In this document: positions 1 to 16,061 of the stretch, one piece after another
Layout of the letters: every line of letters begins with the position of its first letter
Numbering within the stretch: position 1 is the first letter of the stretch
DNA from: a bacterium
GTDB taxonomy: Bacteria; Patescibacteriota; Minisyncoccia; Phycocordibacterales; UBA918
Assembly: GCA_002710785.1 (NCBI GenBank)
Contig: PAMC01000018.1
Coordinates: 10,515-74,514 of the forward strand
Length of the DNA: 64,000 bases
Direction: 5' to 3'
Translations under genes and position numbers: made by a program
Notes under the pieces: model-generated
The model's database searches: none
Seen by the model: only the letters and a program-made list of their open reading frames with translations
Told to the model about the DNA's origin: nothing

Positions 1-519
1 TACCCAACGCAACCAGTGGCGCGCGAGTACGATGAGTACACAGCCCGTGGCGGCAGCTCTCTTCTAACTGGCTCCGGTGGTGAGGATCGTCTAGAGAGGG
101 AAGCATTCTTTGCTAATCAAGGCGTATGCTCAGAAGATTTTTTGCAAGAATATTTTGGCCCTGAAGCCGCCACTGCTGCCTGTGTCGCTCGCGGTGAGAG
201 TGCCTGTGGAGCCCAATTCTACAGCACCACCGACCGAGACCAGAATAACGATTCGTTTTCATTAAGCTTCATGCAACTCAACGTTTCTGTACATGAGGTA
301 CAAAATTGCGCGCAATATGGCGCAGCCAGTGATTTTATCGATTGCCCGGCAGCGTATGAAGGTCGAAACTATGGTGGTCGAATTATTAACCGCTCACTCT
401 ATGCGCAGTGTGAAGAAGCTCTGGTAGACAGTAGATGCGCAGCCGAGAATGCTGCACGTTTACAGCAGCGTGATGGCTGGGGAATTTGGTCCGCGTATAG
501 CGCTAATAATTGCGGCTAA
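1..519 (+). CDS. Cys-rich secreted protein, C-terminal fragment. The frame is open from window position 1, so the 5' end lies outside the window.
   Basis: ORF in frame with position 1; 8 Cys in 167 aa; no recognisable domain. Confidence 0.4.
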   Translation, partial: YPTQPVAREYDEYTARGGSSLLTGSGGEDRLEREAFFANQGVCSEDFLQEYFGPEAATAACVARGESACGAQFYSTTDRDQNNDSFSLSFMQLNVSVHEVQNCAQYGAASDFIDCPAAYEGRNYGGRIINRSLYAQCEEALVDSRCAAENAARLQQRDGWGIWSAYSANNCG

Positions 520-535
520 ATGATATAGTTGAAGT

Positions 536-1042
536 ATGAACAAGATCGTCTTACTAGTAACACTTCTGCTCGCGCTAGGTATTGCAATTGGGTACACGGT
601 GTACACCAAACCACCCAGTACAGCACCTGGTGTGACAGATTTGCCTGATACTTCCCGCACTGCTCCTGGTGAAAGAAATGGCACCATCTCAGTTTCTACA
701 GACGCAGGCACGATAGAGATCAACGATGTTCGCTCCCAACCAGAAACGGTTCCAGCTGGCACGTTTATGTACGCCATGAATGGTTTGAACAAAGACGGTA
801 CGGCACCTTTCACTATGACCTTTGATGAGCGGGATATGAGTGTGGCCGTCGCACTATTGCGAGAGCCGCTTGGAGAAACTCGTCAGCAAGCCGAGCAGCA
901 TCTGCTCGGTCGTTTAGGTATAAGCGAAGACGAGCTCTGTTCGCTATTTGTGTATGTTGGCGTGCCAGCTGAGATTAACAGTTTTTACTCGAATGAGAAT
1001 CTTGGCCTGAGTTTTTGTCCAGGTGCAGTCCAGTTGCCGTAG
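536..1042 (+). CDS. Membrane-anchored or secreted hypothetical protein
   Basis: N-terminal hydrophobic signal/anchor (MNKIVLLVTLLLALGIAIGYTVY); 14 nt after the previous ORF. Confidence 0.45.
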   Translation: MNKIVLLVTLLLALGIAIGYTVYTKPPSTAPGVTDLPDTSRTAPGERNGTISVSTDAGTIEINDVRSQPETVPAGTFMYAMNGLNKDGTAPFTMTFDERDMSVAVALLREPLGETRQQAEQHLLGRLGISEDELCSLFVYVGVPAEINSFYSNENLGLSFCPGAVQLP

Positions 1043-1045
1043 TGT

Positions 1046-1993
1046 ATGAGTAATATTACAGCAATAATCAATTTTTTTATTTGCATCGCTTTACTGGTGC
1101 CAAACCTGGCCTTGGCGCAGCAGGGGAGCATTATGAGCGTATATGGCGAGGCACTCAGCAACCAAGCAGCACAGGTGAGCGACTACGACCGGGGCGCAGG
1201 CGGGCTGGTTACCTGTACTGGTTTCTCGGACTGCAATTTCTGCAGTTTTGGTGCCATGGTCAATAAAATCATTAATTGGCTGTTTGGTTTTCTAACGGTA
1301 GCCGCCGTGCTTATTTTGGCTTGGGCTGGCTTTCGGTTGGTGACGTCAGGTGGTGACACTACGGTAATGCAGTGGGCCAAAGAACGCATTGTGTACGTCA
1401 TTATCGGGTTTGTTCTCATGCTCGCGTCGTGGCTCATTGTCGACACCATTTTGCGTGGCTTAACCGGCAGTGAGCAGGGTATGAACTTCTGGGGCAGTTT
1501 TGATGTCGAGAATTGCGGGTTTATGCGAGAGCCTCAGTCGCGGACGTACGACGAGTACGAGGTAACCGTTACCCTGGAGGAAATGTTAAATGAACAAACT
1601 GCCGGCCCGATAAACAATCCAAATGGAACTAGTGTCACACCCGACATCGAAGGCATGGTCAGTCTAAACGAAATGGGGTTAGTGGTAGCAAATGGATTCG
1701 AGGGCATTAGCGGTCCGGGACGCACTGATTTAGCGCACCCTGAGGTAGCTGCAGCTGCACTGCGTATGCAAGAGCTCGCTGTACAAAGATATGGACAACC
1801 GGTCTTTCAAGTTACCGCAGCGTACACAGACGGTGTCGGGCACAGTGCCAACAGTAGACACTATCAGGGTATCGCAATTGATTTTGATCCAGTTAATGGC
1901 GCATCAACACAACAGGTCGCTAATTTAGCCCGAGAAGTCGGATTTACCTTCGTGCTCGATGAGGGGTCGCATGTGCATGGAGATATGCGATAA
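1046..1993 (+). CDS. Fusion protein: signal peptide plus two-TM VirB2/TrbC-pilin-like N-terminus, with a C-terminal peptidase M15 (LAS/VanY-like) domain
   Basis: Signal peptide, then two TM helices separated by a short loop (…LILAWAGFRLVTSGGD… / …VIIGFVLMLASWLIV…). C-terminal motifs SRHYQGIAIDF and HVHGD are typical of the zinc-binding H-x-D…H triad of M15 peptidases. Confidence 0.55.
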   Translation: MSNITAIINFFICIALLVPNLALAQQGSIMSVYGEALSNQAAQVSDYDRGAGGLVTCTGFSDCNFCSFGAMVNKIINWLFGFLTVAAVLILAWAGFRLVTSGGDTTVMQWAKERIVYVIIGFVLMLASWLIVDTILRGLTGSEQGMNFWGSFDVENCGFMREPQSRTYDEYEVTVTLEEMLNEQTAGPINNPNGTSVTPDIEGMVSLNEMGLVVANGFEGISGPGRTDLAHPEVAAAALRMQELAVQRYGQPVFQVTAAYTDGVGHSANSRHYQGIAIDFDPVNGASTQQVANLAREVGFTFVLDEGSHVHGDMR

Positions 1994-2169
1994 AAGAAAA
2001 TACCTAATAAACGTTGGATATTTTCTATTGCTGTTACAAATCACTAACTATCATTGTTCGCTACACTTCAATTCTAGTAAGTGCTCGCGACCCCGACTCA
2101 ACTGTTGCTGAAGCAACATGTTTCCGTCTCCCGCTCAAGCACGAAAGCAAAGTAGTTTGCTTTCTAAAG

Positions 2170-2210: not shown

Positions 2211-2323
2211 AGCGGGCAAAAAACGTGGCTTTCAGAACTGTATAAGGAGAGGGAGTATATCAAGTCGAGTATTCAAACGCTTCAAGAGCTGCTCGCCTGA
2301 GTCATTTTTGATACAATTCACTG

Positions 2324-2956
2324 ATGATTATCATCACTTCATCAGTCGCTACCGTTGCCGACCACATCTACCAGAATTACCTATCAGACAAGGGATACAA
2401 AACCGTATTGTTTATTGATACTGCAGCTGAACCAGAGGTTGGTAAAGAAAAGGGCGATGACTGGTGGCTACAGGCTGACCTAAAAGGTTTGCAAAACCAA
2501 GGCTACCAAGTAGACCGCTGGAGTATCACTGGCAAGACCAAAGAAGAAATTGAAGCCAAGCTAGAGGAGTACGACATCATCTACATGTGTGGTGGTAATA
2601 CTATTTACCTCCTGCAACAACTTCAGCAGGCTGGCAGCTTTGAATTGATTAAATCAAAGGTGCTGGCCGGAAAGCCGTACATTGGCACTAGTGCTGGTTC
2701 TATTGTGGCCTGTACTAAAATCCCTGCCTACCTTGAAGATGCAGAGGGTATTGAACTAGATGATTACACTGGCTTTGAGTTCTGTGACCTTATTTTTGTA
2801 CCACACTGGGGTCAAGACGGGTTTAAGGACGCATACCTCAATGGTCGTATTCAGACTGCTTATGATGAAAATGAGCCACCGTTCCTGCTGATGAGTGACT
2901 ACCACTACGCTCTAGTTGAAGATGGAGCGGTGACGGTAATAAATACCAAGAAGTAA
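2324..2956 (+). CDS. Peptidase S51 family (dipeptidase E/PepE-like)
   Basis: GGNTIYLL and GTSAGS motifs match the S51 GGNTF…SAG signature. Confidence 0.7.
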   Translation: MIIITSSVATVADHIYQNYLSDKGYKTVLFIDTAAEPEVGKEKGDDWWLQADLKGLQNQGYQVDRWSITGKTKEEIEAKLEEYDIIYMCGGNTIYLLQQLQQAGSFELIKSKVLAGKPYIGTSAGSIVACTKIPAYLEDAEGIELDDYTGFEFCDLIFVPHWGQDGFKDAYLNGRIQTAYDENEPPFLLMSDYHYALVEDGAVTVINTKK

Positions 2957-2958
2957 TT

Positions 2959-3741
2959 ATGGAGAAATTCACACTGCAAAACCGCAAAGGGCAGAATATT
3001 GTCGGCATTCTCGCTAAGCCAGTAGGAGATATTAAAGGCACCTGCGTTTTGCAGCACGGGTGGTCAGGAAAGAAAGAACAAGACCATGTTGTTGCTATCC
3101 AGGAAGCCTTCACCGATAACGGCTGGCAAGTATTTAATTTCGACGCCACCAACTCCTTTAATGAAAGTGATGGGGAGTTTGCAGACTCAAGGCTCGGACT
3201 CCACTACGAAGATATGGAAGATGTGTGTCAGTGGGTACAGCAACAAGATTGGTCCGTTGGTCCATTAGCAGTCTCTGGTCACTCAATGGGTGGCTATGCT
3301 ACCGCTAGATATGCAGAGGACCACCCAGAAGATGTGGCACTCATTGCATCAATCGCACCGGTGGTATCTGGGAAGTTAACGACAGAATCGAAAGAACGGC
3401 GGGAACCGGGAATCATAGCCAAATGGAAAGAAGAGGGTGTACTGGTAAGTGAAAGCTCTACCACACCAGGACTCATCAAGCGAGCACCCTACTCTATCCA
3501 CCAAGAGTGGCTAAATCATGACCTACTACCAAATGCAGACAAGCTCACCATGCCCGTATTTCTGCTGACCGGGACCGATGATGGTTCTTGTCCACCAGAC
3601 CATGTGCAGCAGCTATTTGACGTTATCCCACACGACAATAAGGTATATGAAATTATCGAGGGGGCACCACACACGTACCGCACAGAGGAGGATTTGAAGG
3701 AGGTAAGGGAGCGTTTGAGTAAGTGGCTTAGCGTACAATAG
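2959..3741 (+). CDS. Alpha/beta-fold serine hydrolase
   Basis: GHSMGG nucleophile-elbow motif; 2-nt gap from the upstream gene, so probably operonic. Confidence 0.65.
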   Translation: MEKFTLQNRKGQNIVGILAKPVGDIKGTCVLQHGWSGKKEQDHVVAIQEAFTDNGWQVFNFDATNSFNESDGEFADSRLGLHYEDMEDVCQWVQQQDWSVGPLAVSGHSMGGYATARYAEDHPEDVALIASIAPVVSGKLTTESKERREPGIIAKWKEEGVLVSESSTTPGLIKRAPYSIHQEWLNHDLLPNADKLTMPVFLLTGTDDGSCPPDHVQQLFDVIPHDNKVYEIIEGAPHTYRTEEDLKEVRERLSKWLSVQ

Positions 3742-3745
3742 GAGT

Positions 3746-4219
3746 ATGGATAAACAAGAGGTCACATTCGCTCGCAACTTAGTCAAAGGCAAGATAGCAG
3801 AAACGGTATTTGCCCAGATGCTTCGCTCTACTGGTGAATTTACTGTCTTAGAGTTTGGCTATGAGAAAATCATCCCGGAGTTAGTGAGTCGTGGCAGTCA
3901 CCAGAATGACGACATGGTGGAAGCGCTACGGACCGCCCCTGACTTTGCGGTGATTAATAACAAAACCAAAGAAGTGCATCTAATTGAAGTGAAGTATCGG
4001 CGAGAATTTACTGCTAGTGATGTGCTTCGTATAGCAGAGAGGATGAGTGAGAGCTGGAATCCGTCATACTTATTCTTAGCTACTGAGGATGGCTTCTACT
4101 TTGGGGAGGTGAAGGAAATTATTGCCAACCAGGGTGACATACAGCGACTGGACCATCCACAAATACCCGTAGAAACGCAACAAGAATTTTTACAGATACT
4201 TAACGACTTTGAAGGATAG
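3746..4219 (+). CDS. Hjc-like PD-(D/E)xK nuclease-fold protein
   Basis: Motifs E…PDFAVIN…LIEVKY give E / PD / ExK spacing like archaeal Hjc resolvases and restriction-endonuclease-like folds; 157 aa. Confidence 0.5.
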   Translation: MDKQEVTFARNLVKGKIAETVFAQMLRSTGEFTVLEFGYEKIIPELVSRGSHQNDDMVEALRTAPDFAVINNKTKEVHLIEVKYRREFTASDVLRIAERMSESWNPSYLFLATEDGFYFGEVKEIIANQGDIQRLDHPQIPVETQQEFLQILNDFEG

Positions 4220-4360
4220 GTCGGTCCTGATTTCCACGGATTACTGTTGACTTTGGGTTAGATTTGACTATATTAGGAGGTAACAAGGTCGGCCCCGCTG
4301 CATTCGTGCATGGGCCGGCTTTCTGTTTATATACTGTATTTTTGCTACAATGCGGTGCAA

Positions 4361-5323
4361 ATGGAATCCTACACCAAACCGTTTCTAACAATTGACCAGC
4401 AATTAGATTTGATTGCTTCACGAGGAATGGATATTGGTGACCGTGCGTACGCTGCGGATTGCCTCAAGAACATCGGGTACTATCGCCTCAGCGGCTACTG
4501 GTACCCACTACGAGAATCATCGGTAGTTGAAGACGATGAGGGTAAAAAGACACGGGTGGTCGGAGATTCCTACCGTGACGGCTCCACTTTTAAGCAAGTC
4601 ATAGATATCTACACATACGATAAACACCTCCGGCTCCTGATGCTGGATGTGCTGGAACGAATTGAGATTGCACTGCGTACTGATATTACTCTGCAGATGG
4701 GTCAGTACAGTCCTTGGGCATACAGGGATGGTGACGTTTTGGACCAACGGTTTGTAACTGATGTTACTCCTGGTTTTACTGAATCACGTTTTGCCACATT
4801 CGTGAATCGTTTTGATGATATGGTTGCTCGGTCAAAAAGTGACTTTGTAGACCACTTCAAGAAGAAGTATGAAGACCCGCTACCAATCTGGGCAGCGGTA
4901 GAGTTATGGGATTTTGGAATGTTGTCTGTGTTTCTCTCTGGTATGAAATATCGAGATAAGCGAGCTATTGCAGAGAGGTATGGGGTAAAGCCGGAAATAC
5001 TACCATCTTGGGTTCGTACATTGGCTGACGTACGAAATATCTGTGCGCATCACGGAAGGCTCTGGAACCGCACATTGGTATCCATGCCAAAAACGGCTGG
5101 TATAGAGGTGGATGACTTGAAGCATCTAGACGAAGGGTTTGCTCGGGAGAAGATATACAGTGCGGTAGCCATAGCCCGACACATGCAACGTATCCTCAAC
5201 CCATCTTCTACTTGGGCCGATAGCATCATTAGTCTCAATGAGTCGTTTCCAGCAGCACCCGGTATTGCTTTTAAGCAGATGGGCTACCCAGAGAATTGGC
5301 TAGAGCTGGGTCTGTGGAAGTAG
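4361..5323 (+). CDS. Abortive infection protein, Abi_2 family (AbiD/AbiF-like)
   Basis: N-terminus KPFLTIDQQLDLIASRGMDI…NIGYYRLSGYWYP matches the Abi_2 family signature; start chosen at the internal ATG (MESYTKPF). Confidence 0.7.
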   Translation: MESYTKPFLTIDQQLDLIASRGMDIGDRAYAADCLKNIGYYRLSGYWYPLRESSVVEDDEGKKTRVVGDSYRDGSTFKQVIDIYTYDKHLRLLMLDVLERIEIALRTDITLQMGQYSPWAYRDGDVLDQRFVTDVTPGFTESRFATFVNRFDDMVARSKSDFVDHFKKKYEDPLPIWAAVELWDFGMLSVFLSGMKYRDKRAIAERYGVKPEILPSWVRTLADVRNICAHHGRLWNRTLVSMPKTAGIEVDDLKHLDEGFAREKIYSAVAIARHMQRILNPSSTWADSIISLNESFPAAPGIAFKQMGYPENWLELGLWK

Positions 5324-5390
5324 GTCAGGATTATCTTTGCTTAAACACACCAAGACTACCCAACCAAAATTTCATGGGGTGAGTATAGCA

Positions 5391-5425
5391 AAAAGAAAAG
5401 CCCGCCCCGGTGTGTTGGGGCGAGC
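5391..5425 (-). terminator. Intrinsic terminator for the minus-strand 4-gene operon
   Basis: Stem GCCCGCCCC / GGGGCGAGC with an 8-nt loop. On the minus strand it is followed by a U-tract (the plus strand reads aaaagaaaa). Confidence 0.45.
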
Positions 5426-5448
5426 CAGTAATTCGGTTGTAGGACCGA

Positions 5449-5709
5449 CTAGTTCTGCCGTCGTTCTTCAAGGAGTACGATAGCCGCCGGTTGACCATGG
5501 ACAGCCGGGTCGTAACGCTCAACCAGGGTTAGCTCATCGAAACGAGCCCTCATACCAATCCCGTCGACAAACCCGAACGCATTGGATGCCTTTTCGGGTA
5601 GGTCGGGCGGTTGGTTGAACAGGGTCAATGTCTCCTTAACGTAGAAGCGACCCCGCCTGGCGACAAAGTAGTCACCCTCTGCGAGACTGCCGAATGTGAC
5701 GAAGGGCAT
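5449..5709 (-). CDS. Hypothetical protein (86 aa), last gene of the GC-rich operon
   Basis: ORF 9 nt downstream of the previous gene. The N-terminus MPFVTFGSL weakly recalls the AIG2/GGCT FVYGSL motif; this is unverified. Confidence 0.45.
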   Translation of the reverse strand: MPFVTFGSLAEGDYFVARRGRFYVKETLTLFNQPPDLPEKASNAFGFVDGIGMRARFDELTLVERYDPAVHGQPAAIVLLEERRQN

Positions 5710-5718
5710 TTCGACCCC

Positions 5719-6069
5719 CTACGTCAGAACCAGTTGAGCCGATGAGGGTTTCTCGACCGGCATGAATCCGTTTGTTTCCGTGATAAGCCGAGAGATACGA
5801 CCACCCAGTACCACCATCCGAAAGATAGGTATCCTGACTTTCACGACATACTCCGGCACCCCAGCATCGAACACCGTGGTGGAGTTGATGATGGGCATCC
5901 GAAGCGTTCGCCCGGCATGAGCGAGGGTCACCGAGCGGGTACTCATCATGGCCGTGAAGTCAGCCAGCTCCATGTACTTGGACAGAGACCCGACCTCCTT
6001 GCCGATATACGGCAATACGATGGACGGGATGTACCAGTTGAGAGTCACTTTAACTTGTTTGGGTTGCAT
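5719..6069 (-). CDS. Hypothetical protein (116 aa)
   Basis: ORF 5 nt downstream of the previous gene; no recognisable domain. Confidence 0.5.
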   Translation of the reverse strand: MQPKQVKVTLNWYIPSIVLPYIGKEVGSLSKYMELADFTAMMSTRSVTLAHAGRTLRMPIINSTTVFDAGVPEYVVKVRIPIFRMVVLGGRISRLITETNGFMPVEKPSSAQLVLT

Positions 6070-6074
6070 GTCGT

Positions 6075-6383
6075 TTACTTTCTGATGATTTCAAACTCGC
6101 CGAGGATGACCAGTTTGGGTTCAGCATGAAGCGAAGCCGTTCCGTTTACTGACGGAACAATCCGCTTGATGTCGTGTCCGTGGAATTTCGGGCAACTCAC
6201 CCGAAAGCTGACACCCTCCTCCGGCCCGTAGCCGATGGAGGTGATGGTTCCGCAGATGATGTGGTCTGCCGAGTCACTGAAAATCAGCGTTTGACCCAGC
6301 ACGGCACCGATGAGGTCACCCAAGCCGAGTTTGTTGAGTTCAACCCGGAGTAGTTCAGCTCCAGCCATATTCTTCTCCTTCAT
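6075..6383 (-). CDS. Hypothetical protein (102 aa) with a C-x3-HGH motif
   Basis: The start overlaps the methyltransferase stop by 4 nt (ATGA). CPKFHGHD could be a metal-binding motif; family not recognised. Confidence 0.5.
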   Translation of the reverse strand: MKEKNMAGAELLRVELNKLGLGDLIGAVLGQTLIFSDSADHIICGTITSIGYGPEEGVSFRVSCPKFHGHDIKRIVPSVNGTASLHAEPKLVILGEFEIIRK

Positions 6384-7003
6384 TTCTGGACCAGGACAGA
6401 CATTGCGCCGTCAGCCCAATGATGTGTGGTTGCAAGGACTGTGAAGCCAGATTGCTCCAGCATCGCAGCGAGTTCATCAAGGTCGTAGTGAGCGTGATGC
6501 AGATGGGGTGTGCCATCAGGGTGTTTTTCAAGCTCCTCATGGCTTTCATAAACAGCTGGCATAACCACCATCATGACTCCACCGGTAACCAGTATACGCT
6601 TCAGTCCAGCAAGGACTGTCGGCATATTGTGCTTGGGTTCACCACTGAACGTGCAGCAGCACCACAATCCATCAAACGATGCCTCTGGAAACTCGAGCTT
6701 CCGATAGGACATGAGCTCGAACTGCTGGTCTGGATAGGCGTCTTGAGCCAACCTCACCATCTCGGGCGAGTGGTCGATACCGATGTATTGCAAGCCCTGG
6801 TCGAGAAAGCGGTAGACATAGCGAGCCCAACCACATCCGACATCGAGCATTCGGTCTCCCGGAAGGGCGTCGAAGAAGGCTTGTAGGTCGGCATCTGGTT
6901 CTTCACCCTTCCACTGTGTCCAAGTTGGACTCTTGGCAAAGTCATCGGCATATGCAACGCCGAGACGTTCCGCCAGGTCTGGGTCAACGTTTGTATCGTT
7001 CAA
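6380..7003 (-). CDS. Class I SAM-dependent methyltransferase
   Basis: Motif I MLDVGCGWARY. Start reassigned to TTG at 7003 (MNDTNVDPDLAERLG…), preceded by AAGGGAGAG, which resembles a ribosome-binding site. The longer annotated N-terminus looks like non-coding read-through. Confidence 0.6.
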   Translation of the reverse strand: MNDTNVDPDLAERLGVAYADDFAKSPTWTQWKGEEPDADLQAFFDALPGDRMLDVGCGWARYVYRFLDQGLQYIGIDHSPEMVRLAQDAYPDQQFELMSYRKLEFPEASFDGLWCCCTFSGEPKHNMPTVLAGLKRILVTGGVMMVVMPAVYESHEELEKHPDGTPHLHHAHYDLDELAAMLEQSGFTVLATTHHWADGAMSVLVQK

Positions 7004-7123
7004 GTTTCTCTCCCTTGTAAAGGTGCAATTGTGTACTTGTGTTCGAGTCGAACAATGCCACAAATCCTTTTGTTTTTCAATAAAAATCTCCCTCACGCTG
7101 AACGATTGTTGTCTCCCAGAACA

Positions 7124-7129
7124 TTGACA
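7124..7129 (+). promoter_or_regulatory. TTGACA -35-like hexamer upstream of 7178..7732
   Basis: Exact TTGACA about 48 nt before the start codon; no convincing -10 at canonical spacing. Confidence 0.2.
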
Positions 7130-7177
7130 GAACAAAGTTTTATTATACAGTATTTATAGCAAAAAGGAGCTCCTATC

Positions 7178-7732: not shown

Positions 7733-7758
7733 TACTCTCAGGCACCCTCACGTTATTG

Positions 7759-7787: not shown

Positions 7788-7790
7788 TAT

Positions 7791-7821
7791 ACAAACGCCC
7801 CAGTTACCGGAAACTGGGGCG
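7791..7821 (-). terminator. Hairpin downstream of the minus-strand M23-like gene
   Basis: 10-bp stem CGCCCCAGTT / AACTGGGGCG; only a weak U-tract on the minus strand. Confidence 0.4.
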
Positions 7822-7842
7822 GACGCGTATTGTTGTATCGGG

Positions 7843-8451
7843 TTAGACCCACAGAGGAACAAGGCTCTTGAAGCCAAAAGGGCTAGGGTTGCGGTCAAGT
7901 CGAAACACGATGAAGTGAAGGTGGTCACGGTCAGTCAGTCCGGTTTTCCCGACAACACCGATGACCTGCCCTGCTCGCACTGCAGCTCCCTGATGTACTC
8001 CAGCATCACGGACCGAATTCTTCGCCAAATGGCAGTATTGAGTGAATTCAGTCGGGGTATGTTGGATGGTGATGTAGTTCAGCTTATCTCGGAAACTGAT
8101 ATCATCACCCCACTCGTCAGAGTGCTCTTGCACCTCAACCACCATTCCGCCTGAAGCGGCCAGGACTGGAGTTCCATCAAGGACCAAGAAATCAATGGCA
8201 TTCTTGAAAGCAGCTCGGTGTGTCAGTGGACTTTTGGCACACAGGTAATGCGCCGTGTGATACAGCTCATCAGCTGGTATGCCGTCCTTCAATGCTTCTG
8301 CGTGACGCACAGCCTCGTCAGGTGTCACATTGAGCGGAAGACGGTATGTCTCTTTGCTCACTTCATCATCCCACATCGGGTCGTCAGCCCAACGGTCAAT
8401 ATCGTCCATTTCGATACTCCTAAATTGTCCACGTTCGGTTTTCATTTCCAA
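7843..8451 (-). CDS. Peptidase M23 (LytM)-like protein, no signal peptide
   Basis: YITIQH…YCHL…GQVIGVVGKTGLTDRDHLHF fits the M23 HxxxD / HxH motifs. Confidence 0.6.
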   Translation of the reverse strand: MEMKTERGQFRSIEMDDIDRWADDPMWDDEVSKETYRLPLNVTPDEAVRHAEALKDGIPADELYHTAHYLCAKSPLTHRAAFKNAIDFLVLDGTPVLAASGGMVVEVQEHSDEWGDDISFRDKLNYITIQHTPTEFTQYCHLAKNSVRDAGVHQGAAVRAGQVIGVVGKTGLTDRDHLHFIVFRLDRNPSPFGFKSLVPLWV

Positions 8452-8490
8452 GTACGAAAACTAACACAAATACTATAAAGTTACTATTTA

Positions 8491-9063
8491 TCAATGTTTT
8501 CTTCGTATAAGCAAAAGTGCCACAAACAAACCATTGGCAATGCCCCAAGCAGCCGGAAACAAGCTGGTTAGGATTGAATAGTGAGATAAAGCGGCAACAC
8601 TGAGTAAGTGCCTAAATGAGTTAATAGCGTAAGTAGATATAGTCTCAGTGTGAGGTCTATTCCAAGATTTACGAATGGTCGGTATAAAACCAAGCATGCC
8701 AACTGTTACAAGTAGAATCATTGCGGTAACTGGTTGTTTTGCCAACAGCCACAATCCTAGAGCGACCAACGCTGCTAAAAAGAAAAGGGTGTCAGACCGG
8801 GTAATATCTTTATCGCCTTGGCGCATCCCCAGTACAAAAATACATAGTGATATAGAACCTGCTACTAGGGTTACCCATGCACCTGGACCTGCATCATCAC
8901 TAAGCTGAAGGGCAAAGATGATTATCGTAATGAGACCCCATACAAATCAAGTATATACATGTGGCTTTGTTTTTCCTTTTAGCACGTCACGCAAGTATGG
9001 AATGTAACCAACAACTCCAAGAATGACAGTTATGACCCCTATTATTTCCTTAATTTCAAGCAT
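8491..9063 (-). pseudogene. Small multi-TM membrane protein whose frame is interrupted by a single in-frame TGA (plus 8947-8949). It may instead be two separate small ORFs.
   Basis: The 38-aa ORF MLEIKEIIGVITVILGVVGYIPYLRDVLKGKTKPHVYT ends in a TGA that is in frame with the downstream 111-aa membrane ORF (annotated 8491..8826). The second ORF has no ATG for ~50 codons after the TGA. Confidence 0.35.
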
Positions 9064-9127
9064 AATATTTGTAACAATGCTAACACAACAAAAGCCACAC
9101 ACCCGCGGGGTGTATGGCTTTAATAAT

Positions 9128-9682
9128 TTAGCTTTTAAGTTGTTGTATTAACTCACTCGCATCCTCCTTAGACATCGTATCCAAGTTGCCGAGCATCTGG
9201 TTCTTCTCATCTTCATCGGTAACCTTGGTGTCGATTAACTGGGTTAGGTAGCGTTTCTGAGCATCTGAAGCTTGGTAGGTAGCAGCGGAGTAACTGTCAC
9301 TTTGTAGCCCAAAGCTCGGTACGGGACCAGCTTCCTCGGCAGCAAAGGCGTTGGGGAATTTACCAGCCCGAACACACGCATCTGTTAGTGCACTCGAAAA
9401 AGCAAATTTAACCGAGTTACTAATATACCGATTGGACTGTGACAGGACCGACATGCCCCGACCTTGCCCAATTACCCGACCACCAATCTTTAAGGTACAA
9501 AGGTAGGCAATGAGTCCAGGGTGATTAAACACGGTACTGGTCTGCATATCCTCTTCAAAGGTGGCGGTAATATCGTAGACTCCTAAGTGTTTCTCTATCT
9601 CCTCACGGATTGGATGCTTCGCTGGCTGTTGTGGTTGCACTGTTGCATAACTCCTTGGTTTAGTAGTTGTTGCATTATTCAT
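9128..9682 (-). CDS. Hypothetical protein (184 aa), third gene of the ArdC-like operon
   Basis: Its ATG overlaps the stop of the upstream small ORF (tTAA/ATG arrangement); no recognisable domain. Confidence 0.5.
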   Translation of the reverse strand: MNNATTTKPRSYATVQPQQPAKHPIREEIEKHLGVYDITATFEEDMQTSTVFNHPGLIAYLCTLKIGGRVIGQGRGMSVLSQSNRYISNSVKFAFSSALTDACVRAGKFPNAFAAEEAGPVPSFGLQSDSYSAATYQASDAQKRYLTQLIDTKVTDEDEKNQMLGNLDTMSKEDASELIQQLKS

Positions 9683-9851
9683 GATTATTTAGTTTGTTTA
9701 GTCTCTTGATAATTACGGTTTTGGGTTTAATGGTGACGGAAATAATGTCGCCTAACGAAAAACCAGCGGTAGCCAGTCGACTATCACTGATTCGTATACA
9801 TGGCTCATCCTTGGCTCTACGCTCGGACACCACGGTCATTTGGCGAGTCAT
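9675..9851 (-). CDS. Small AbrB/MazE/SpoVT-like DNA-binding protein (58 aa); absent from the supplied ORF track
   Basis: Hand translation gives MTRQMTVVSERRAKDEPCIRISDSRLATAGFSLGDIISVTIKPKTVIIKRLNKLNNHE, which has the swapped-hairpin pattern (R-I/V…LG…GD-I…V…K…IIK). ATGA overlap with the upstream stop; TAA overlaps the downstream ATG. Confidence 0.45.
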   Translation of the reverse strand: MTRQMTVVSERRAKDEPCIRISDSRLATAGFSLGDIISVTIKPKTVIIKRLNKLNNHE

Positions 9852-10180
9852 GCTGGTTTGTGGTTAGCAATAGGTTCCGTCTGACTGATGTGGAAGAGGT
9901 TGATACTTCTTCGCCTTGTTTGCTTCTCTCCGGTCTCTGGGTCTTCTGATTCGATTAGAGTGTAGCTTTGGATAGCCTTGGCTCCTTTCTTTACGCTGTA
10001 CCCGTTACGTCGCCAAGCTGCAAAACTCATACAGCTATGGTACGGGTCGTAGGTGGCAGCGTACTCTGGCCCTAGCTCTGGGTGTTCGGCTATTGCTTGC
10101 CTCACGGCTTCAGCGGTCTTCTCAGAACCCAGATATGGTGACACTGGGCGGTCTGATAATACTTCTTGTACCTTTTTCAT
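9848..10180 (-). CDS. ArdC N-terminal-like ssDNA-binding domain protein (110 aa)
   Basis: FAAWRRNGYSVKKGAKAIQ resembles the ArdC-N (DUF1738) F-x-x-W…G…V-[KR]-KG-[EA]-K-[GA] signature common on conjugative elements. Confidence 0.45.
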   Translation of the reverse strand: MKKVQEVLSDRPVSPYLGSEKTAEAVRQAIAEHPELGPEYAATYDPYHSCMSFAAWRRNGYSVKKGAKAIQSYTLIESEDPETGEKQTRRRSINLFHISQTEPIANHKPA

Positions 10181-10533
10181 AGTGTTTATGTGTGCCGCAC
10201 TGGATGCATCTGCAGTGCAGGTAGGAGTGGCTTATGTTTAATTCCTAGCCTAACCCCCTAGTAATAAGACCCAGGCTACATAGGTGGGTACCCGGGCAGT
10301 GGTTCGGTTAGGGAAGTTACAGAGTAAGGAACTATGTAATACGGGGTACTAACGCAGTTTTGTGTATTTTTTGGTCTTACCCAAGAGACGAAAAAGTTGT
10401 TGACGGGTCTTTTACCAAGGGGGTATAAAAATGCATCAAATACGTTGCTAAATATAGCTTTTTGCTTGGTAGGTAGATTTTTCTTTACTTTACCTAGTAC
10501 ACACAGAAGGGTAGCTGGTATCTGCCTGGTAAT

Positions 10534-10557
10534 TCTCCCCCTCCTTATAGGGGGAGA
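10534..10557. repeat. Inverted repeat TCTCCCCC-tccttata-GGGGGAGA in the intergenic region upstream of the replication module
   Basis: 8-bp perfect arms seen directly. Confidence 0.5.
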
Positions 10558-10714
10558 TTACCAAGGAGCCAACCCCCACCACCGTGTTCATAAATATTCT
10601 GTAGCCAGGGTAATTCACCAGAACCATCAGCCGAGCGTGAGATTTTTTAGTTGAGCATTTTGGTACTCTGCTAAATTAGTACGTACCACATGAAGTGGTA
10701 ATAGCTTGCGTACT

Positions 10715-10840
10715 ATGAACACAACGACTATATTAGTGACACGGGAGTGCTCGGTCTGCGGCTACAAATGGCTGCCTCGAGTACCAAACCCAAAAAAATG
10801 CCCTTGTTGCCAAGCACGCCTTGAAGACGAGTTGGCATAG
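10715..10840 (+). CDS. Small zinc-ribbon protein (41 aa); absent from the ORF track
   Basis: MNTTTILVTRECSVCGYKWLPRVPNPKKCPCCQARLEDELA has CxxC…CxxC; it sits just upstream of the primase, as is common in phage/plasmid replication modules. Confidence 0.4.
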   Translation: MNTTTILVTRECSVCGYKWLPRVPNPKKCPCCQARLEDELA

Positions 10841-10936
10841 TTGAGGAACGGGACAATCAAAAGTTAATTATTATTTGGGACAAAAAGAATACCCGCAGCA
10901 ACGGGCATTCGGCTCTTAAATATTGAATTGACTTGT

Positions 10937-12967
10937 ATGAATAGTAACACAGTCCCAAACGGCAGTCCTCTGACTGACCAAGAAATTATTACAAACGCAG
11001 TAGAAACACTCACTGGTGACCGAGCCCAATGGGTAATTTGGCAATATCAGGAACGTGAAGACGGAGGTAAGCCAGGCAAAATTCCGATTGGTATTTATGG
11101 TGAAGCAGCTAAAGTTTCAGACAATTCCACCTGGCTACACTACGATGATGCAAAACGCCTCTGTGATGAGCATGATTTAGATGGTGTAGGCATTATGTTT
11201 GACGGCAGCTTCCTGGGCGTAGACCTAGATAATTGCGTTGAGGATGGAGATATCACAGACCCAGTTGTGGCAGCATTTGTAGCCATCGCAGATACATATA
11301 CAGAGATTTCGCCGAGCGGCACTGGACTCCACCTATTCTTCAAACTAGCAGGACCTTACAAGGCTAAGAAAAATCGACACGGTAGTTACGAAGTGTATAC
11401 CAACGACCGGTACTTCACATTTACCGGCCACCTATTCAATCAAAACCTCGTACGGACAGTAACTCCCAAAGAAGTGGAACGCTTACTAGAGGCTATTGGC
11501 TACCCCTGGAATCCCGTTGAATCAGCAGTCGACAGTGTGGTCCTTGGTAATACTACAAACCTAGACCAAGAGATTGCCAAGGAGAAGATGTTTAGCTCAA
11601 AGCACGGGGCCGAAATCGAAGCCCTCTATAACGGTGACACGTCAGCCTACGGTGGGGATGTCTCAAAAGCCGAGGCTGCCTTAGTGAAACACGCAGCACA
11701 CTGGTTTAGTGACCGTGAAGCGGTGCAGGAGTTTTGGTTGCAATCACCGCTAGCCCAACGAGATAAGACGCAAGGACGAGTAGATTACCAAGAACGTACC
11801 CTTGATTTTGCGTTGCAGGACTCCTCTGGGTCACCAACACCAGAATTCACCATTAATGACACAGACAACAGTAAATTGGGTCCACGGGAAATCTTCGCCC
11901 AAGCTGAAACCGACCTCGAAGACTTTTTGAAACTCGATGGTGAAACGGACTGGTTAGTGGACCGACTGGTTACCAAGGGGTCACTTAATATGATTGCTTC
12001 ACCGCCAGCCCAAGGGAAGACGTTTATGGCTCTTAATATTGCTTTGGCAGTGGCGTTTGGTGAGCCTCTATTCGGTAAATTCAATGTACCTGACGCCGCT
12101 AACGTACTGGTTGTGAACGAGGAAGATACTGAGAATGAGCTATCTGGTCGTTTGCAGAGTATGGTGTCAAAGGGTGCGGTACGGGGTAAAATCAAGCTCT
12201 ACTGCAACACTGGACTCAAAGTGAACAAGGATTGGTCAGACGGGCTTTTAGAGCGTGCTAAGGCCAATAATGCGGGTCTGGTAATTCTCGATAACCTAGC
12301 TGTGCTGAGTTTGGCTAACGAAAATGACGCCCAAGCGGTACAGGAAGTAATGGAGCAGTTTCGGCGGTTCACTCGTGCTGGTATTACAGTTATCTTCATT
12401 CACCACGACCGCAAGGGGCAGCCAGGAGAATCAGGTGGTAATCAATCACTTGATAGTGCTCGTGGGTCTGGAGTGATTCCAGCAGCAGTTCATGGCTATC
12501 TCAGTGTCCGAACTGCCAAGAACAACACCTTTGTAGTATCGCAACGGAAGCTAAAAGCCAACAGTCCAAAAGTGAAGGACTTCGTGATTCAGATGCACAC
12601 TGATATCACAAAGGGTAAGCAATTTCGTTTTCGGTTTGAGTATATCGGTGAGTACGACCCAGACCTCAACGCTGCCGAGAACCTAGAGACTAGGATTGTA
12701 TCCCTCAGTCAAGAGTACGGCACAAAATACTACTTCACCAAGAAGACGTTGGTTGGTCGTGGTTTCGCTACTCGACCAGATGACAAGAGTCTTGTGAGTG
12801 CACTAAAGAGTTTGGTGGCCAAAGGTTTGCTACAGGTGAATCAGTATAAGGACCTAGGCGAACCAGAAAAGGAACTCGTTGACGATACAGTGAAAGTGGG
12901 TAATGCCGCAGTGTATTGGTTTGCGTCAGACAGCTTAGTAGAGGATGTGGCTAATATTCCTTTCTAG
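10937..12967 (+). CDS. Bifunctional DNA primase/polymerase (PrimPol) fused to a P-loop helicase-type (AAA_25/RepA-like) domain
   Basis: PrimPol N-terminal motifs (GIMFDGSFLGVDLDNC, SPSGTGLHLFF); Walker A ASPPAQGKTFMALNIA; Walker B VILDNLAV. ATG at 10937 is preferred over TTG at 10928. Confidence 0.8.
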   Translation: MNSNTVPNGSPLTDQEIITNAVETLTGDRAQWVIWQYQEREDGGKPGKIPIGIYGEAAKVSDNSTWLHYDDAKRLCDEHDLDGVGIMFDGSFLGVDLDNCVEDGDITDPVVAAFVAIADTYTEISPSGTGLHLFFKLAGPYKAKKNRHGSYEVYTNDRYFTFTGHLFNQNLVRTVTPKEVERLLEAIGYPWNPVESAVDSVVLGNTTNLDQEIAKEKMFSSKHGAEIEALYNGDTSAYGGDVSKAEAALVKHAAHWFSDREAVQEFWLQSPLAQRDKTQGRVDYQERTLDFALQDSSGSPTPEFTINDTDNSKLGPREIFAQAETDLEDFLKLDGETDWLVDRLVTKGSLNMIASPPAQGKTFMALNIALAVAFGEPLFGKFNVPDAANVLVVNEEDTENELSGRLQSMVSKGAVRGKIKLYCNTGLKVNKDWSDGLLERAKANNAGLVILDNLAVLSLANENDAQAVQEVMEQFRRFTRAGITVIFIHHDRKGQPGESGGNQSLDSARGSGVIPAAVHGYLSVRTAKNNTFVVSQRKLKANSPKVKDFVIQMHTDITKGKQFRFRFEYIGEYDPDLNAAENLETRIVSLSQEYGTKYYFTKKTLVGRGFATRPDDKSLVSALKSLVAKGLLQVNQYKDLGEPEKELVDDTVKVGNAAVYWFASDSLVEDVANIPF

Positions 12968-12968
12968 T

Positions 12969-13163
12969 ATGTCTAACACTACTCTGGCACATAAAATTTG
13001 CATTGCGTATCGCCATTTATTCAATGTACGTGAGTCACAACCACTAAACGCTGGCACCATTAGTGCTATGGAAGAGCTTGGATTAATCCTGAAACCAATC
13101 TACCAGCGAATGCGAAAAGAAGGCTGGGTATTACAAAATGGTAAACTAACAAAACATGAGTAA
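12969..13163 (+). CDS. Small hypothetical ORF between primase and recombinase
   Basis: Fills the gap; 64 aa; no domain; could be Xis/RDF-like but there is no evidence. Confidence 0.25.
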   Translation: MSNTTLAHKICIAYRHLFNVRESQPLNAGTISAMEELGLILKPIYQRMRKEGWVLQNGKLTKHE

Positions 13164-14892
13164 ATCACCGAAGAAGGACGCAGTCGAACGAGAAACATTT
13201 GCAGCTATTGAGCGTGGTGATTTTAAGGAGTGTTACCTGATTTATAACCGCAAAAGTAGCGATGAAGCGGATAGTCAAAAGAATTCGATTGAGTTTCAGA
13301 ATGCAGAAAGTATGCGCTTTGCTGCACGAGAATCGCTTCCAGTAGCTGGAATTACTATCACAGGGCTGTGTAATAACGGCTCCATCTCTGAACGACATTC
13401 TGGTTTTAAGGAAGATGAAAACTTTGTGATTTCTTCTGATGGTAAGGTAACGTACCAGATTGACCGACCAAAGTTTCAGCGGTTATTGCAGTTGGTTAAT
13501 CAGGGTTACATCAAAGGTGTCATTTGTCTTTGTTGGGACCGTATCAGCCGAAACAAATCTGATGATGCTATCGTTCGTAAGCTAATGAAGAAAGGGGTGG
13601 ATATTCGCTTCGTACATGCTCACTACGACGACAGCAGTGCCGGAGAGCTCCATATGGATATCGACGGTATGTTTGCGCAACATCACTCCCGGGTGACTAG
13701 TGAAAAGGTCCGTTTGAGTAAGGTAAACAGTCGCAGTCAGGGTAAGTGCACATACCGTGCTCCAATCGGCTATCTCAATGAAGGTAATATGGACTGGAAG
13801 CCATTCGACCCTGAACGAGCACCGATGGTGAAGGAGATGTTTGAACTATATGCTACAGGTGATTGGAGTCTGTCTGATTTAACACGACACGCTCGTAAAA
13901 TTGGTTTAACTGCACCACCAATGCGACGACGTCGTACCAAAGAGGAGATGCTGGCAGACGAGGAAGTACGACTGGAGAAAGTCACCAGTCCGATTCAGCA
14001 AGGATACATGGCCCAGATTCTCAAGAACAAGTTTTACATTGGCTACATCATTGGTAACAACGGTAAAGCTGGTGAGTGGGTGAAGAGTGAAAGCCATGAG
14101 CCACTTGTTGATGAGAAATTGTTTAACAAGGTTCAGGCTCTATTGGGTAAGAAGAACGTCAGCACACACTACACGGAGAAGTTGGACTATCCATTGCGTG
14201 GGATTATGCGGTGTTCCTGCTGTGGGCGAATCTATACTCCGTACGTGAAGAAGGGAAACCAGTACTACTACAGTCGCTGCAAAGATGGGTGCACTAATAA
14301 AATGAAGAATTTGCATTACACTTATGTAGTAGAAAAAGTACGGAAGTTGGTTTCCGGTCTGCACTTTACCGATGACGAGCTGGAAGAATTTGAAAGCCGA
14401 GCTGGGACGGATATCGCTCTTTTGGAGAACAAGCGTGACCGTGAAATGGAGGTTATCGAACGCAAGAAAAAGAAAGTGCGTGATGAATTAGCATATTTAC
14501 GCTCTGAGCGGGTACAGTTGCTAAAAACAGGTGTATTCACTCCTGAAGGGTACGTAGAGGAGACAAATAGGCTGGAGGGTGAGATTGATGATTTGCAGAC
14601 TGAGGAGCAGGTATCTGAGGAAGCAATGCGAGAGCTAATGAAGGAAGTGGTACATCTTTCAGAACTACTAAAAAACGTTGTGCCTATTTACGATTACGCC
14701 AATCCGCAAGAAAAAGAGAAAATTATCCGAGCTATCTTTTCAGAACTCTCGTTTTCTCACGATACGTTGCAATATAAGGTTAAAAAAGGGTTTGAAACCT
14801 TTGATAAGCGTATTTCTGCTTTTTGCGGGCCCACGTGGACTCGAACCACGGCCGCTGGTTTTGGAGACCAGAATTCTACCACTAAACTATAG
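13156..14892 (+). CDS. Large serine recombinase (integrase); 3' end overlaps tRNA-Trp on the opposite strand
   Basis: Catalytic YNRKSSDEADSQ (compare YxRVSTDEQ), DRISR motif, recombinase-domain APIGYLNEGN, zinc ribbon CSCCGR…C…C, C-terminal coiled coil. Confidence 0.8.
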   Translation: MSKSPKKDAVERETFAAIERGDFKECYLIYNRKSSDEADSQKNSIEFQNAESMRFAARESLPVAGITITGLCNNGSISERHSGFKEDENFVISSDGKVTYQIDRPKFQRLLQLVNQGYIKGVICLCWDRISRNKSDDAIVRKLMKKGVDIRFVHAHYDDSSAGELHMDIDGMFAQHHSRVTSEKVRLSKVNSRSQGKCTYRAPIGYLNEGNMDWKPFDPERAPMVKEMFELYATGDWSLSDLTRHARKIGLTAPPMRRRRTKEEMLADEEVRLEKVTSPIQQGYMAQILKNKFYIGYIIGNNGKAGEWVKSESHEPLVDEKLFNKVQALLGKKNVSTHYTEKLDYPLRGIMRCSCCGRIYTPYVKKGNQYYYSRCKDGCTNKMKNLHYTYVVEKVRKLVSGLHFTDDELEEFESRAGTDIALLENKRDREMEVIERKKKKVRDELAYLRSERVQLLKTGVFTPEGYVEETNRLEGEIDDLQTEEQVSEEAMRELMKEVVHLSELLKNVVPIYDYANPQEKEKIIRAIFSELSFSHDTLQYKVKKGFETFDKRISAFCGPTWTRTTAAGFGDQNSTTKL

Positions 14893-14896
14893 GCCC
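14826..14896 (-). tRNA. tRNA-Trp (anticodon CCA)
   Basis: Hand-folded. Acceptor GGGCCTA/TGGGCCC (one G-U pair), D-arm GTTT-AGTGGTA-GAAT, anticodon stem CTGGT/ACCAG with loop CTCCAAA, T-arm CGTGG-TTCGAGT-CCACG, discriminator G. The CCA end is not encoded. Confidence 0.75.
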
Positions 14897-14936
14897 ATCT
14901 ATAAATATAAATCTACTACACAGGCCCAGTTGTGGC

Positions 14937-14952
14937 GAGACCAGAATTCTAC
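14937..14952. repeat. 16-nt copy of the tRNA-Trp anticodon-arm segment (gagaccagaattctac)
   Basis: Exact repeat of 14864-14879. Confidence 0.5.
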
Positions 14953-15031
14953 TTGAGCAAACGAGGAAGGAATGAGAGCTTGCTCGCATTCATCTTCCGA
15001 GTGCAGGTCAAGCAAGAAATCTATAATTTCT

Positions 15032-15051
15032 TACCACTAAACTATAGGCCC
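15032..15051. repeat. 20-nt exact copy of the tRNA-Trp 5' end (taccactaaactataggccc)
   Basis: Exact repeat of 14877-14896; lies ~135 nt beyond the intact tRNA 5' end. Confidence 0.55.
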
Positions 15052-16060: not shown

Positions 16061-16061
16061 T

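Follow-up and report, generated by a model that had tools for sequence, protein, structure and literature searches.

A probable tycheposon-like integrative element at tRNA-Trp in marine Patescibacteria and the attachment sites of its large serine recombinase

What kind of DNA occupies the low-GC end of a bacterial contig when that end closes with the gene of a serine recombinase running into a tRNA gene, and where does such DNA begin and end? The question is raised by a stretch of 64,000 nucleotides from a member of the Patescibacteriota (assembly GCA_002710785.1, contig PAMC01000018.1, positions 10,515 to 74,514), hereafter the window, to which all plain coordinates refer and which we compared with public contigs (L-numbers) and homologous proteins (P-numbers). 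A preliminary description had taken positions 1-15051 for an integrative, conjugative or mobilisable element that ends at tRNA-Trp and within which the window begins. Our analysis indicates that the window most probably carries a 12.6-kb integrative element of marine Paceibacterota-like Patescibacteria, which a large serine recombinase (LSR) inserted at the 3' end of tRNA-Trp, and that this element is a tycheposon-like, self-replicating cargo island without transfer machinery.

Limits of the element at tRNA-Trp

The target gene, tRNA-Trp(CCA), lies at 14825-14896 on the minus strand (ARAGORN; Rfam 65.5 bits). When public assemblies were queried for exact copies of the neighboring MiaA protein (15164-16060), two kinds of contigs emerged, both from one marine (Tara) population. 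Occupied contigs show the order MiaA, tRNA-Trp and LSR seen in the window (L007, L008, L012, L013, and L015), and in contigs with an empty site, which come from four independent assemblies (L010, L011, L014, and L016/L103), a perfect hairpin and a 315-aa pilin gene come immediately after tRNA-Trp. Deleting 2218-14830 from the window in silico yields L010 with 1 mismatch in 1591 nt. The empty site thus defines the element as window positions 2218-14830 (12,613 bp), bounded by copies of the 6-bp core GCGGGC at 2212-2217 (attL, plus strand) and 14825-14830 (attR, plus strand), both placed by alignment and the deletion test.

The three-way alignment with L010 gives ...TTTACTCGA GCGGGC CCACGTGGACTCGAACC... 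for attB, ...TTTACTCGA GCGGGC AAAAAACGTGGCTTTCAGAAC... for attL and ...CTGCTTTTT GCGGGC CCACGTGGACTCGAACC... for attR; the reconstructed attP junction is TTTCTGCTTTTTGCGGGCAAAAAACGTGGCTTTCAG. Both junctions are present in the occupied contigs L001/L008, and one junction in each of L002, L003, L007, L012, L013, L015, L019, and L020. L004 and L104 end exactly at 2217 and L009 exactly at 14825, as would be expected of an assembly graph that forks between two alleles. On the tRNA strand, the core starts with the final 4 bases of the acceptor stem, which has 7 bp, and continues through the discriminator base into the first base of the trailer (numbering assigned by eye), and the tRNA is intact in both the occupied and the empty state. 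The block 14825-16104, which includes the tRNA, is 99.8-99.9% identical to the empty-site contigs, and positions 1-2217 and 14831-15051 are likewise present in contigs without the element.

Some members of one population therefore carry the element, and others lack exactly this DNA. The exact empty site and the LSR together bear out the proposal of an integrative mobile element at tRNA-Trp, and attL and attR follow from that site. The limits first given to the island were wrong on both sides, and the window does not start inside it, since positions 1-2217 are host DNA that persists where the element is missing. A direct-repeat search found no displaced tRNA-Trp 3' fragment, the usual signature of a tyrosine integrase.

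One could suppose instead that the island is fixed and that the apparently empty contigs arose from non-specific deletion, a chance polymorphism with which the failure to detect a circular form would agree. We consider this extremely improbable, as the junctions fall exactly in the 6-bp core adjoining the LSR gene, the tRNA end and the hairpin are restored without loss, and a like geometry is found in at least 20 other species.

Sliding GC and tetranucleotide profiles are not uniform and set the first 15 kb apart from the rest of the window. The 1-kb GC values are 0.44-0.53 in these 15 kb, compared with 0.49-0.58 to the right, and the tetranucleotide correlation with the right-flank average is 0.15-0.53 in 1-16 kb and 0.75-0.92 elsewhere. 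The element itself has a GC content of 0.4735 (47.3%), and no 12.6-kb stretch to the right falls below 0.5126; the 1-kb means are 0.476 for the element and 0.531 for the DNA to the right (Mann-Whitney p 8e-5). The left part is thus lower in GC and atypical, as had been noticed, but the contrast is about 5-6 points and not the 42-52% versus 55-67% first reported. GC reaches 0.51-0.53 in the 5-8 kb stretch of the window.

The recombinase, its attachment sites and its exchanged tail

In its integrated form the LSR (13156-14892, plus strand) has 578 aa and matches the Pfam domains Resolvase (1.1e-15), Recombinase (3.3e-12) and, below the cut-off, Zn_ribbon_recom (0.0012), in agreement with the early identification of a large serine recombinase adjoining the tRNA. 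Residues R32, S34, D36, D128, R129, and R132 are invariant in 23 aligned homologs. An AlphaFold2 (AF2) model of homolog P0018, with long helices at 402-510 and beta strands at 524-538, matches full-length serine integrase-DNA complexes (Foldseek E 3e-14). The reading frame of the LSR has no stop before the tRNA, and tRNA-Trp, read in antisense, supplies its last 20 residues, PTWTRTTAAGFGDQNSTTKL. Joining the left side of attR to the right side of attL produces attP and, with it, a 585-aa LSR ending in QKTWLSELYKEREYIKSSIQTLQELLA. As attP falls within the 3'-terminal part of the LSR gene, integration swaps the native 27-residue tail (...WLSEL...I...I..L) for 20 antisense-tRNA residues. The detached piece, comprising the 27 codons for QKTWLSELYKEREYIKSSIQTLQELLA and a stop, persists at attL (2217-2300, plus strand) and would rejoin the LSR gene in the excised attP form.

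To place this arrangement among other genomes, we compared the 120 best of at least 972 LSR homologs, which are 54-71% identical. Past a conserved ...NRFxAxC(D/G)P, the C-termini of these 120 form distinct classes: most resemble antisense tRNA ('TGNRTP...CPNR'), and about 20 have the ending '(A)WLSEL...R..I...I..L', which agrees with the reconstructed tail. When one genome per species (GTDB) was scanned, 181 loci were confirmed, 80 of which were kept. In 46 of these, nearly all in metagenome-assembled genomes of Patescibacteria, the LSR open reading frame (ORF) extends into a tRNA encoded on the opposite strand (Glu 38, Ala 3, Leu 3, Trp 1, and Arg 1). Detached tails occur in 22 of these 46 loci, 3-11.5 kb upstream of the integrated LSR and always in its orientation, distances that imply related elements about 3-12 kb long, the contents of which are otherwise unrelated. 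LSRs with intact tails are found mainly in Bacteroidota, Proteobacteria and other phyla, with no tRNA nearby; one of them (P0008) is encoded on a contig resembling a plasmid or an integrative and conjugative element (ICE), with Replic_Relax, RadC and DUF932. None of the phage and plasmid LSRs in reference collections is more than 25% identical to the LSR of the window, and a pattern scan of 2.9 million IMG/VR contigs returned no relative. The tail and attP arrangement is a family trait that is not peculiar to the copy in the window.

Other loci of the clade show further arrangements. Four detached tail remnants stand in a row upstream of one LSR at tRNA-Glu in L026 (3364-6154), the outer ones weaker, which looks like repeated integration at one tRNA with older elements decaying, and L041 has two such remnants. 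In a third class of C-terminus in Patescibacteria LSRs, '...EEILTLARTYFEQN' (L059 11640-11683, L061, and L048; P0015, P0019, P0075, and P0092), the gene ends at neither a tRNA nor an Rfam RNA, and part of the clade may thus integrate at a different target. L059, a complete Nomurabacteria chromosome, has a LOOT RNA (RF03000, 80.9 bits) at 5887-6012, about 4 kb upstream of its LSR in a presumed related element. Loci from Bacteroidota encode an LSR with its native tail, yet they contain more tail-like coding copies, oriented like the LSR, a few kb downstream of it (L053 6683; L079 12913, 16996, and 21252; L080 9623; L087 14040).

How a serine recombinase would recognize several different tRNAs is suggested by the geometry of these sites. 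Mapping by longest common substring, which is noisy, placed cores of 6-15 bp at the tRNA 3' ends of related loci, and it was replaced by anchoring the detached tails on their Trp codon. A hexamer that ends 8 nt before this codon recurs at the LSR/tRNA junction, and reads GTGACC at tRNA-Glu, GCGGGC at tRNA-Trp and GTGGGC at tRNA-Leu. In 21 of 21 mapped loci, attL has GAA(C) beginning 17 nt beyond the core; the T-loop GAAC of attR begins 12 nt beyond the core in 18 of 21, the remainder being two TCGGAC T-loop variants and one mis-anchored locus. Serine-integrase half-sites are known from LSR-DNA structures to have a signature of this kind, the outer motif of attP being displaced outward by 5 bp compared with that of attB, and the offset between +17 (attP) and +12 (attB) fits this rule. 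The geometry therefore points to the tRNA T-arm as a putative B' half-site with TGGCTTTCNGAAC as its mimic in P', which would explain the targeting of tRNAs, the fixed 'WLSE' codons and the switching between tRNAs. A different assignment, with the 'FEN(R)' and 'WLSE' codons as the two arms of attP, was dropped because their spacing differs between the window and the tRNA-Glu group.

The detached tails were traced with a hidden Markov model (HMM) of the tail, made from 22 intact homologs and searched in 81 sequences (37,839 ORF segments). It gave 41 matches on the LSR strand, among them the window copy at 2214 (E 8e-13), and 0 on the opposite strand. The tail looks like real protein, although the sign of selection on it is modest and its synonymous sites are nearly saturated. 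Its length of about 22-32 aa is similar across phyla, AF2 predicts two helices (555-563 and 566-590, pLDDT ~82-84) after the zinc-ribbon strands, and the distal part keeps I11, I15, and L18 with varied synonymous codons, the ratio of nonsynonymous to synonymous change (pN/pS) being 0.56 in detached remnants and 0.62 in intact genes. That the detached tails are not decaying fits elements still passing through a free form. An ssrA-like C-terminal degron in the native tail was also considered and is unsupported, as only about one third of the tails end in two hydrophobic residues (by eye).

It is nearly an even question, however, whether the overlap of attP with the LSR frame is incidental, WLSE being merely the DNA of an attP half-site and the tail having no protein function, so that both forms of the enzyme behave alike. 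The motif TGG CTT TCN GAA is fixed as nucleotides (TGG in 40/40, CTT in 36/40, and GAA in 40/40, with no alternative Leu or Glu codons in the 40 sequences), its synonymous change (pS) is 0.38 compared with 0.79 in the distal tail, and it sits where the motif for the zinc-ribbon domain of an LSR is expected, all of which agrees with an incidental overlap. The helical pattern of I11, I15, and L18 lies past this motif, outside the usual +/-25 bp of an att site, and this position, the pN/pS of about 0.6, the similar tail length across phyla and the two modeled helices argue for a function of the tail as protein. A more ambitious interpretation, which we regard as tentative and rather unlikely, holds that the LSR has its conserved C-terminal helix only when the element is free, and that the tail swap, together with a 72-aa partner that would be translated alongside the LSR in both states, acts as a sensor of the integration state that sets the direction, activity or stability of the enzyme. 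Equally tentatively, for example, the enzyme might integrate with the tail present and excise with the tail absent and the partner at hand. If true, this would be a directionality mechanism undescribed for serine integrases.

The partner is encoded by a 72-aa ORF (12945-13163, plus strand) that overlaps both the end of the helicase gene described below and the start of the LSR gene. ORFs of its family, with the C-terminal motif (F/L)SxETxxALxELGxVLxxIxxRMxxEGYxIxDGxIxK, precede the LSR across phyla in 76 of the 78 loci with an extractable upstream ORF. An HMM of 74 upstream ORFs, with the window left out, had a single match among the 1201 ORF segments of the window, namely 12945-13163 (E 5.7e-14). 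Of 19 ORFs tested between attL and the LSR, this is the only one common to more than one of the 80 related loci; the remaining genes of the element, including the PrimPol-helicase, are not conserved among them. A homolog search with the 72-aa protein returned only itself, a phmmer search of 1.84 billion representatives gave 10 matches at E <=0.001 (7 of them proteins of 53-91 aa), and a profile of 26 partners found no relative in PDB or Pfam. Its position and conservation make the partner a candidate recombination directionality factor (RDF) or accessory protein.

Gene content and the kind of element

The backbone of the element is its right third (9.1-14.8 kb), in which the partner and LSR genes are preceded by a replication gene, a zinc-ribbon ORF and a leftward trio. 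The replication gene (10937-12967, plus strand) encodes a PrimPol-helicase, as first described, with an N-terminal archaeo-eukaryotic-type primase-polymerase and an AAA_25/DnaB-like helicase; residues 31-300 match a PHROG DNA primase/helicase (9.5e-51) and residues 328-498 Pfam AAA_25 (6.9e-28), and the protein is 25-32% identical to phage primases including that of NrS-1. Upstream of it is the 44-aa zinc-ribbon ORF already noted (10706-10840, plus strand), recognized from CxxC...CxxC in its translation and with a faint Pfam match only. The leftward trio (9128-10180, minus strand) consists of a 184-aa ORF, a 58-aa ORF with weak likeness to SymE/AbrB (SymE_toxin E 4.8e-4, below the cut-off), and a 110-aa ORF with weak likeness to ArdC-N. 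HMM searches recovered the LSR and AAA_25 domains expected for the element, and the proposed ArdC-N-like gene has a match (ArdcN E 0.0018; PHROG anti-restriction E 0.0021) that stays under the cut-off.

The left two thirds appear from their gene content to be cargo. They begin on the plus strand with a Peptidase_S51 family protein (2324-2956; Pfam 5.8e-31) and an alpha/beta hydrolase (2959-3741; Hydrolase_4, Pfam 3.2e-20), followed by a 157-aa protein (3746-4219) and, adjoining it, an AbiD/Abi_2 abortive-infection protein (4310-5323; Pfam Abi_2 2.3e-53, PADLOC AbiD 2.4e-69), a defence gene that had been correctly recognized. The 157-aa protein is tentatively a PD-(D/E)XK nuclease with a fold like that of Hjc/RecU. 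It has no match in Pfam, PHROG, PADLOC or NCBIfam; the top Foldseek matches of its single-sequence AF2 model are indeed Hjc resolvases, as the earlier label of Hjc-like nuclease implies, but at E 1e-3 to 4e-3 and TM 0.4-0.5, from a low-confidence model (pLDDT 59). Three small ORFs of 86, 116, and 102 aa (5449-6383, minus strand; called on public contigs) have no family match. Next come an S-adenosylmethionine-dependent methyltransferase (6380-7135, minus strand; Pfam Methyltransf_25/11 ~2e-15; 207 aa on public contigs) and a 184-aa predicted membrane protein (7178-7732, plus strand; called on public contigs) without a family match; the related element L105 also encodes a methyltransferase that matches these Pfam families (Methyltransf_23/11/25). 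A cell-wall endopeptidase of family Peptidase_M23 (7843-8451, minus strand; Pfam 7.6e-17) and two small hydrophobic ORFs of 111 and 51 aa without a family match (8491-9102, minus strand) complete the cargo.

Variation within the element was seen in one sample. L002 matches the window to about 7700, save three mismatches near 200, and from there to the contig end (L002 17050-17331, equivalent to window ~7700-7980) is about 80% identical to it; L007, from the same sample, matches the window in this stretch. At least two variants of the element thus occur in that sample, differing rightwards from the M23 peptidase gene.

In the mechanism that we propose, the LSR would recombine attP with attB at the 6-bp core in the 3' end of tRNA-Trp, keeping the tRNA intact and exchanging its own 27-residue tail for 20 tRNA-antisense residues. 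Gene content suggests that the excised circle would be replicated by its own PrimPol-helicase and that the 72-aa ORF coupled to the LSR may act as an accessory or directionality factor. Movement between cells would depend on transformation, vesicles or a helper; the host encodes dprA (21851-22717), which makes uptake of the element by natural transformation conceivable.

Transfer by conjugation, the route first considered, would require a type IV secretion system (T4SS) assembled from VirB2/TrbC-like pilins and genes further left, with ArdC-N guarding the incoming strand. T4SS_pilin domains are indeed present in the ORFs at 16-519 and 1046-1993 (E ~8e-9), the second of which also has a weak Peptidase_M15 domain, and to these can be added a weak NCBIfam match to an ICE pilin-like protein (2.9e-6, below the cut-off) and the weak ArdC-N-like ORF. 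The gene described as a VirB2/TrbC-like protein with a hydrolase domain is thus real, but both pilin genes lie outside the element and stand by the tRNA in the empty-site contigs. Further left, L001 has a second pilin gene, a 204-aa ORF, tRNA-Tyr, ClpB, IF-2, RbfA, four tRNAs and a class V aminotransferase (cysteine desulfurase-like gene), and the type IV secretion genes anticipated there were not found, as the 9.5 kb left of the element contain no VirB4, VirD4 or relaxase. No T4SS ATPase or other T4SS protein and no coupling protein was found among the element ORFs (Pfam, PHROGs, and NCBIfam), in these 9.5 kb or among the other window ORFs checked. The element ORFs also gave no match to a relaxase family (Pfam, NCBIfam, and PHROGs), which is absence of evidence since several of them have no family. 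With ArdC-N and SymE both below their cut-offs, we consider a conjugative or mobilisable element very improbable.

A small prophage or phage satellite is slightly less improbable and still unlikely. The ORFs without annotation, which are many, would then be virion or hijack genes, the M23 peptidase would serve lysis and the LSR would be a phage integrase, and such an origin would suit a PrimPol-helicase that resembles phage primases and a recombinase class typical of phages; tycheposons resembling phage-inducible chromosomal islands also exist (10.1101/2020.12.28.424599). Against this, the element has no match to a capsid, portal, terminase, tail or packaging family (Pfam and PHROGs), its LSR has neither a relative in the IMG/VR scan nor a phage homolog above 25% identity, and the related elements are only 3-12 kb long and unrelated in content. 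Inoviruses of the candidate phyla radiation have been reported (PMC6813254); an inovirus was rejected here, as no element ORF matches an inovirus morphogenesis ATPase or a rolling-circle initiator (Pfam and PHROGs).

Several points weigh against the self-replicating integrative island that we favor. All of the contigs are metagenome assemblies, although the empty junction was recovered in four independent ones and could not arise from a 6-bp overlap. An exact search for the 36-nt attP junction found it in neither JGI metagenome contigs nor IMG/VR, and an exact look-up of the reconstructed 585-aa free-form LSR in a collection of 15 billion proteins was negative, so that the case for current excision is built on the presence/absence polymorphism and the intact tails. 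The crossover dinucleotide cannot be placed inside the GCGGGC core, and the left halves of attB and attP show weak dyad symmetry. Furthermore, the role given to the 72-aa ORF is conjecture, based solely on where the ORF lies and how well it is conserved, and about half of the element ORFs have no detectable family, among which a relaxase or virion protein could hide.

Flanking DNA, related systems and meaning

On the outer side of attL, the host DNA contains a perfect 20-bp hairpin (2165-2206) that is native to tRNA-Trp and resembles a trailer or terminator; it adjoins the tRNA in L010 and L103, and lies 12.6 kb from it when the site is occupied. The occupied tRNA-Trp is without a downstream hairpin, and read-through from it (14825-14700, minus strand) would be antisense to the 3' end of the LSR gene. 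Directly 5' of tRNA-Trp is a 155-nt unit (14897-15051) with a split copy of tRNA nucleotides 1-18 and 19-34, a 78-nt insert between the two pieces, and then a degenerate anticodon arm. The window and most contigs have one copy, and L008 (3160-3470) and L009 have two in tandem. As an att repeat the unit was rejected, being also present at the empty site; it may be the scar of another element that targets the 5' half of the tRNA, or a duplicated promoter or leader.

Within L001 8000-11680, which extends to window position 2217, a 3.3-kb stretch of low GC (0.41-0.50) lies between tRNA-Tyr (L001 8292-8375, minus strand) and attL. It encodes two T4SS_pilin proteins and has two further ORFs, one HTH-like of 204 aa and one of 168 aa, and it is present in contigs without the 12.6-kb element. 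A degenerate copy of the tRNA-Tyr 3' end lies about 180 nt beyond that tRNA (L001 ~8100-8130), and the stretch may be an older, fixed island. To the right, GC dips occur at 26389-26949, with a Fic/DOC protein near tRNA-Gln (29644), and at 41524-44821, with a pair of ATP-grasp ligases and a YHYH-like protein; no recombinase was found beside either dip among the ORFs checked. With the seryl-tRNA synthetase of the window, a 'Candidatus Paceibacterota' protein shares 91% identity and proteins of Nomurabacteria, Kaiserbacteria, and Parcubacteria share 74-76%, values that suggest a host in a reduced-genome lineage, as had been supposed.

In domain architecture and fold, the LSR is like the integrases of Bxb1, PhiC31, Listeria A118/LI, and TP901-1 (Foldseek E 3e-14 to 1e-9, with 14-17% identity in the alignments to solved structures), and like other phage large serine integrases it has a short core, simple sites of about 40-50 bp and the 5-bp offset of the outer motif. 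In those phages, attP is not known to lie within the int reading frame, and their RDFs are unrelated proteins. Their integrases target protein-coding or intergenic sites and not tRNA genes (PMC9262239, PMC7192596); Int-S mycobacteriophages, for example, do not use tRNA genes (PMC9262239), and serine-integrase (S-Int) elements at t(m)RNA genes number 14 of 297 in a survey that termed this use previously unreported (PMC7192596), so that an LSR at a tRNA is as unusual as the preliminary description held. The S-Int islands of that TIGER survey were, as here, mapped to tRNA genes by comparative genomics, but were flagged as needing experimental proof and given no mechanism (PMC7192596), whereas the present sites are clade-wide (46 of 80 loci) and uniform in geometry.

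Archaeal type I (SSV1-type) integrases likewise have attP in the integrase gene, which is split by integration at a tRNA (PMC6972569). Those enzymes are tyrosine recombinases that lose a large part in a split regarded as near-suicidal, whereas here a serine recombinase exchanges only its last 27 residues, past all catalytic and DNA-binding domains. A second parallel, described by Broussard et al. (2013) and reviewed in PMC9262239, is the integration-dependent immunity of mycobacteriophages of clusters G, N, and P, where attP sits at the 3' end of a phage gene over a tRNA-derived core, and integration alters the C-terminus of the encoded protein and with it the way the protein behaves. The gene there is that of the repressor, the integrase is a tyrosine recombinase, and an ssrA-like degradation tag is swapped; here it is the serine recombinase itself that is affected, and there is no consistent tag-like ending.

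By analogy, the best functional match of the element is the tycheposon, and it probably works like one. Both are cargo islands at tRNA sites in streamlined marine genomes, with an integrase and a primase/helicase and no conjugation genes, and both vary between cells of one population. Tycheposons differ in being cyanobacterial and in having partial-tRNA repeats of about 40 nt, compared with a 6-bp repeat, a patescibacterial host and attP inside the recombinase gene here. Their integrases are also of another class in 97% of cases, as 910 of 937 Prochlorococcus tycheposons use tyrosine recombinases and 27 a large serine recombinase (10.1101/2020.12.28.424599). No gene is common to the two as far as tested (the hallmark profiles were not compared), and the likeness is one of function rather than of established membership.

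Short-core integration by LSRs, systems with attP inside a gene, tycheposons, and unverified S-Int islands at tRNAs are already known. In the literature, which we covered incompletely, we found no description of a serine-integrase clade devoted to tRNA 3' ends, of T-arm mimicry, of an LSR gene altered by its own integration, or of the conserved partner. The element is a precisely delimited mobile element of Patescibacteria with both alleles known, of which few have been mapped to the base in these bacteria, as far as the literature was searched. The clade to which its recombinase belongs uses tRNA genes, which serine integrases were thought to avoid (PMC7192596, PMC9262239), and the universal T-loop as a half-site would explain its moves between tRNA-Glu, Ala, Leu, Arg, and Trp. 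Because att sites can be predicted from a tRNA end and a detached tail, the clade may supply dozens of orthogonal LSR/attP/attB sets, which are sought as tools for genome engineering. If the exchange of the tail alters the enzyme, it would also offer a new and testable answer to how a serine integrase picks its direction.

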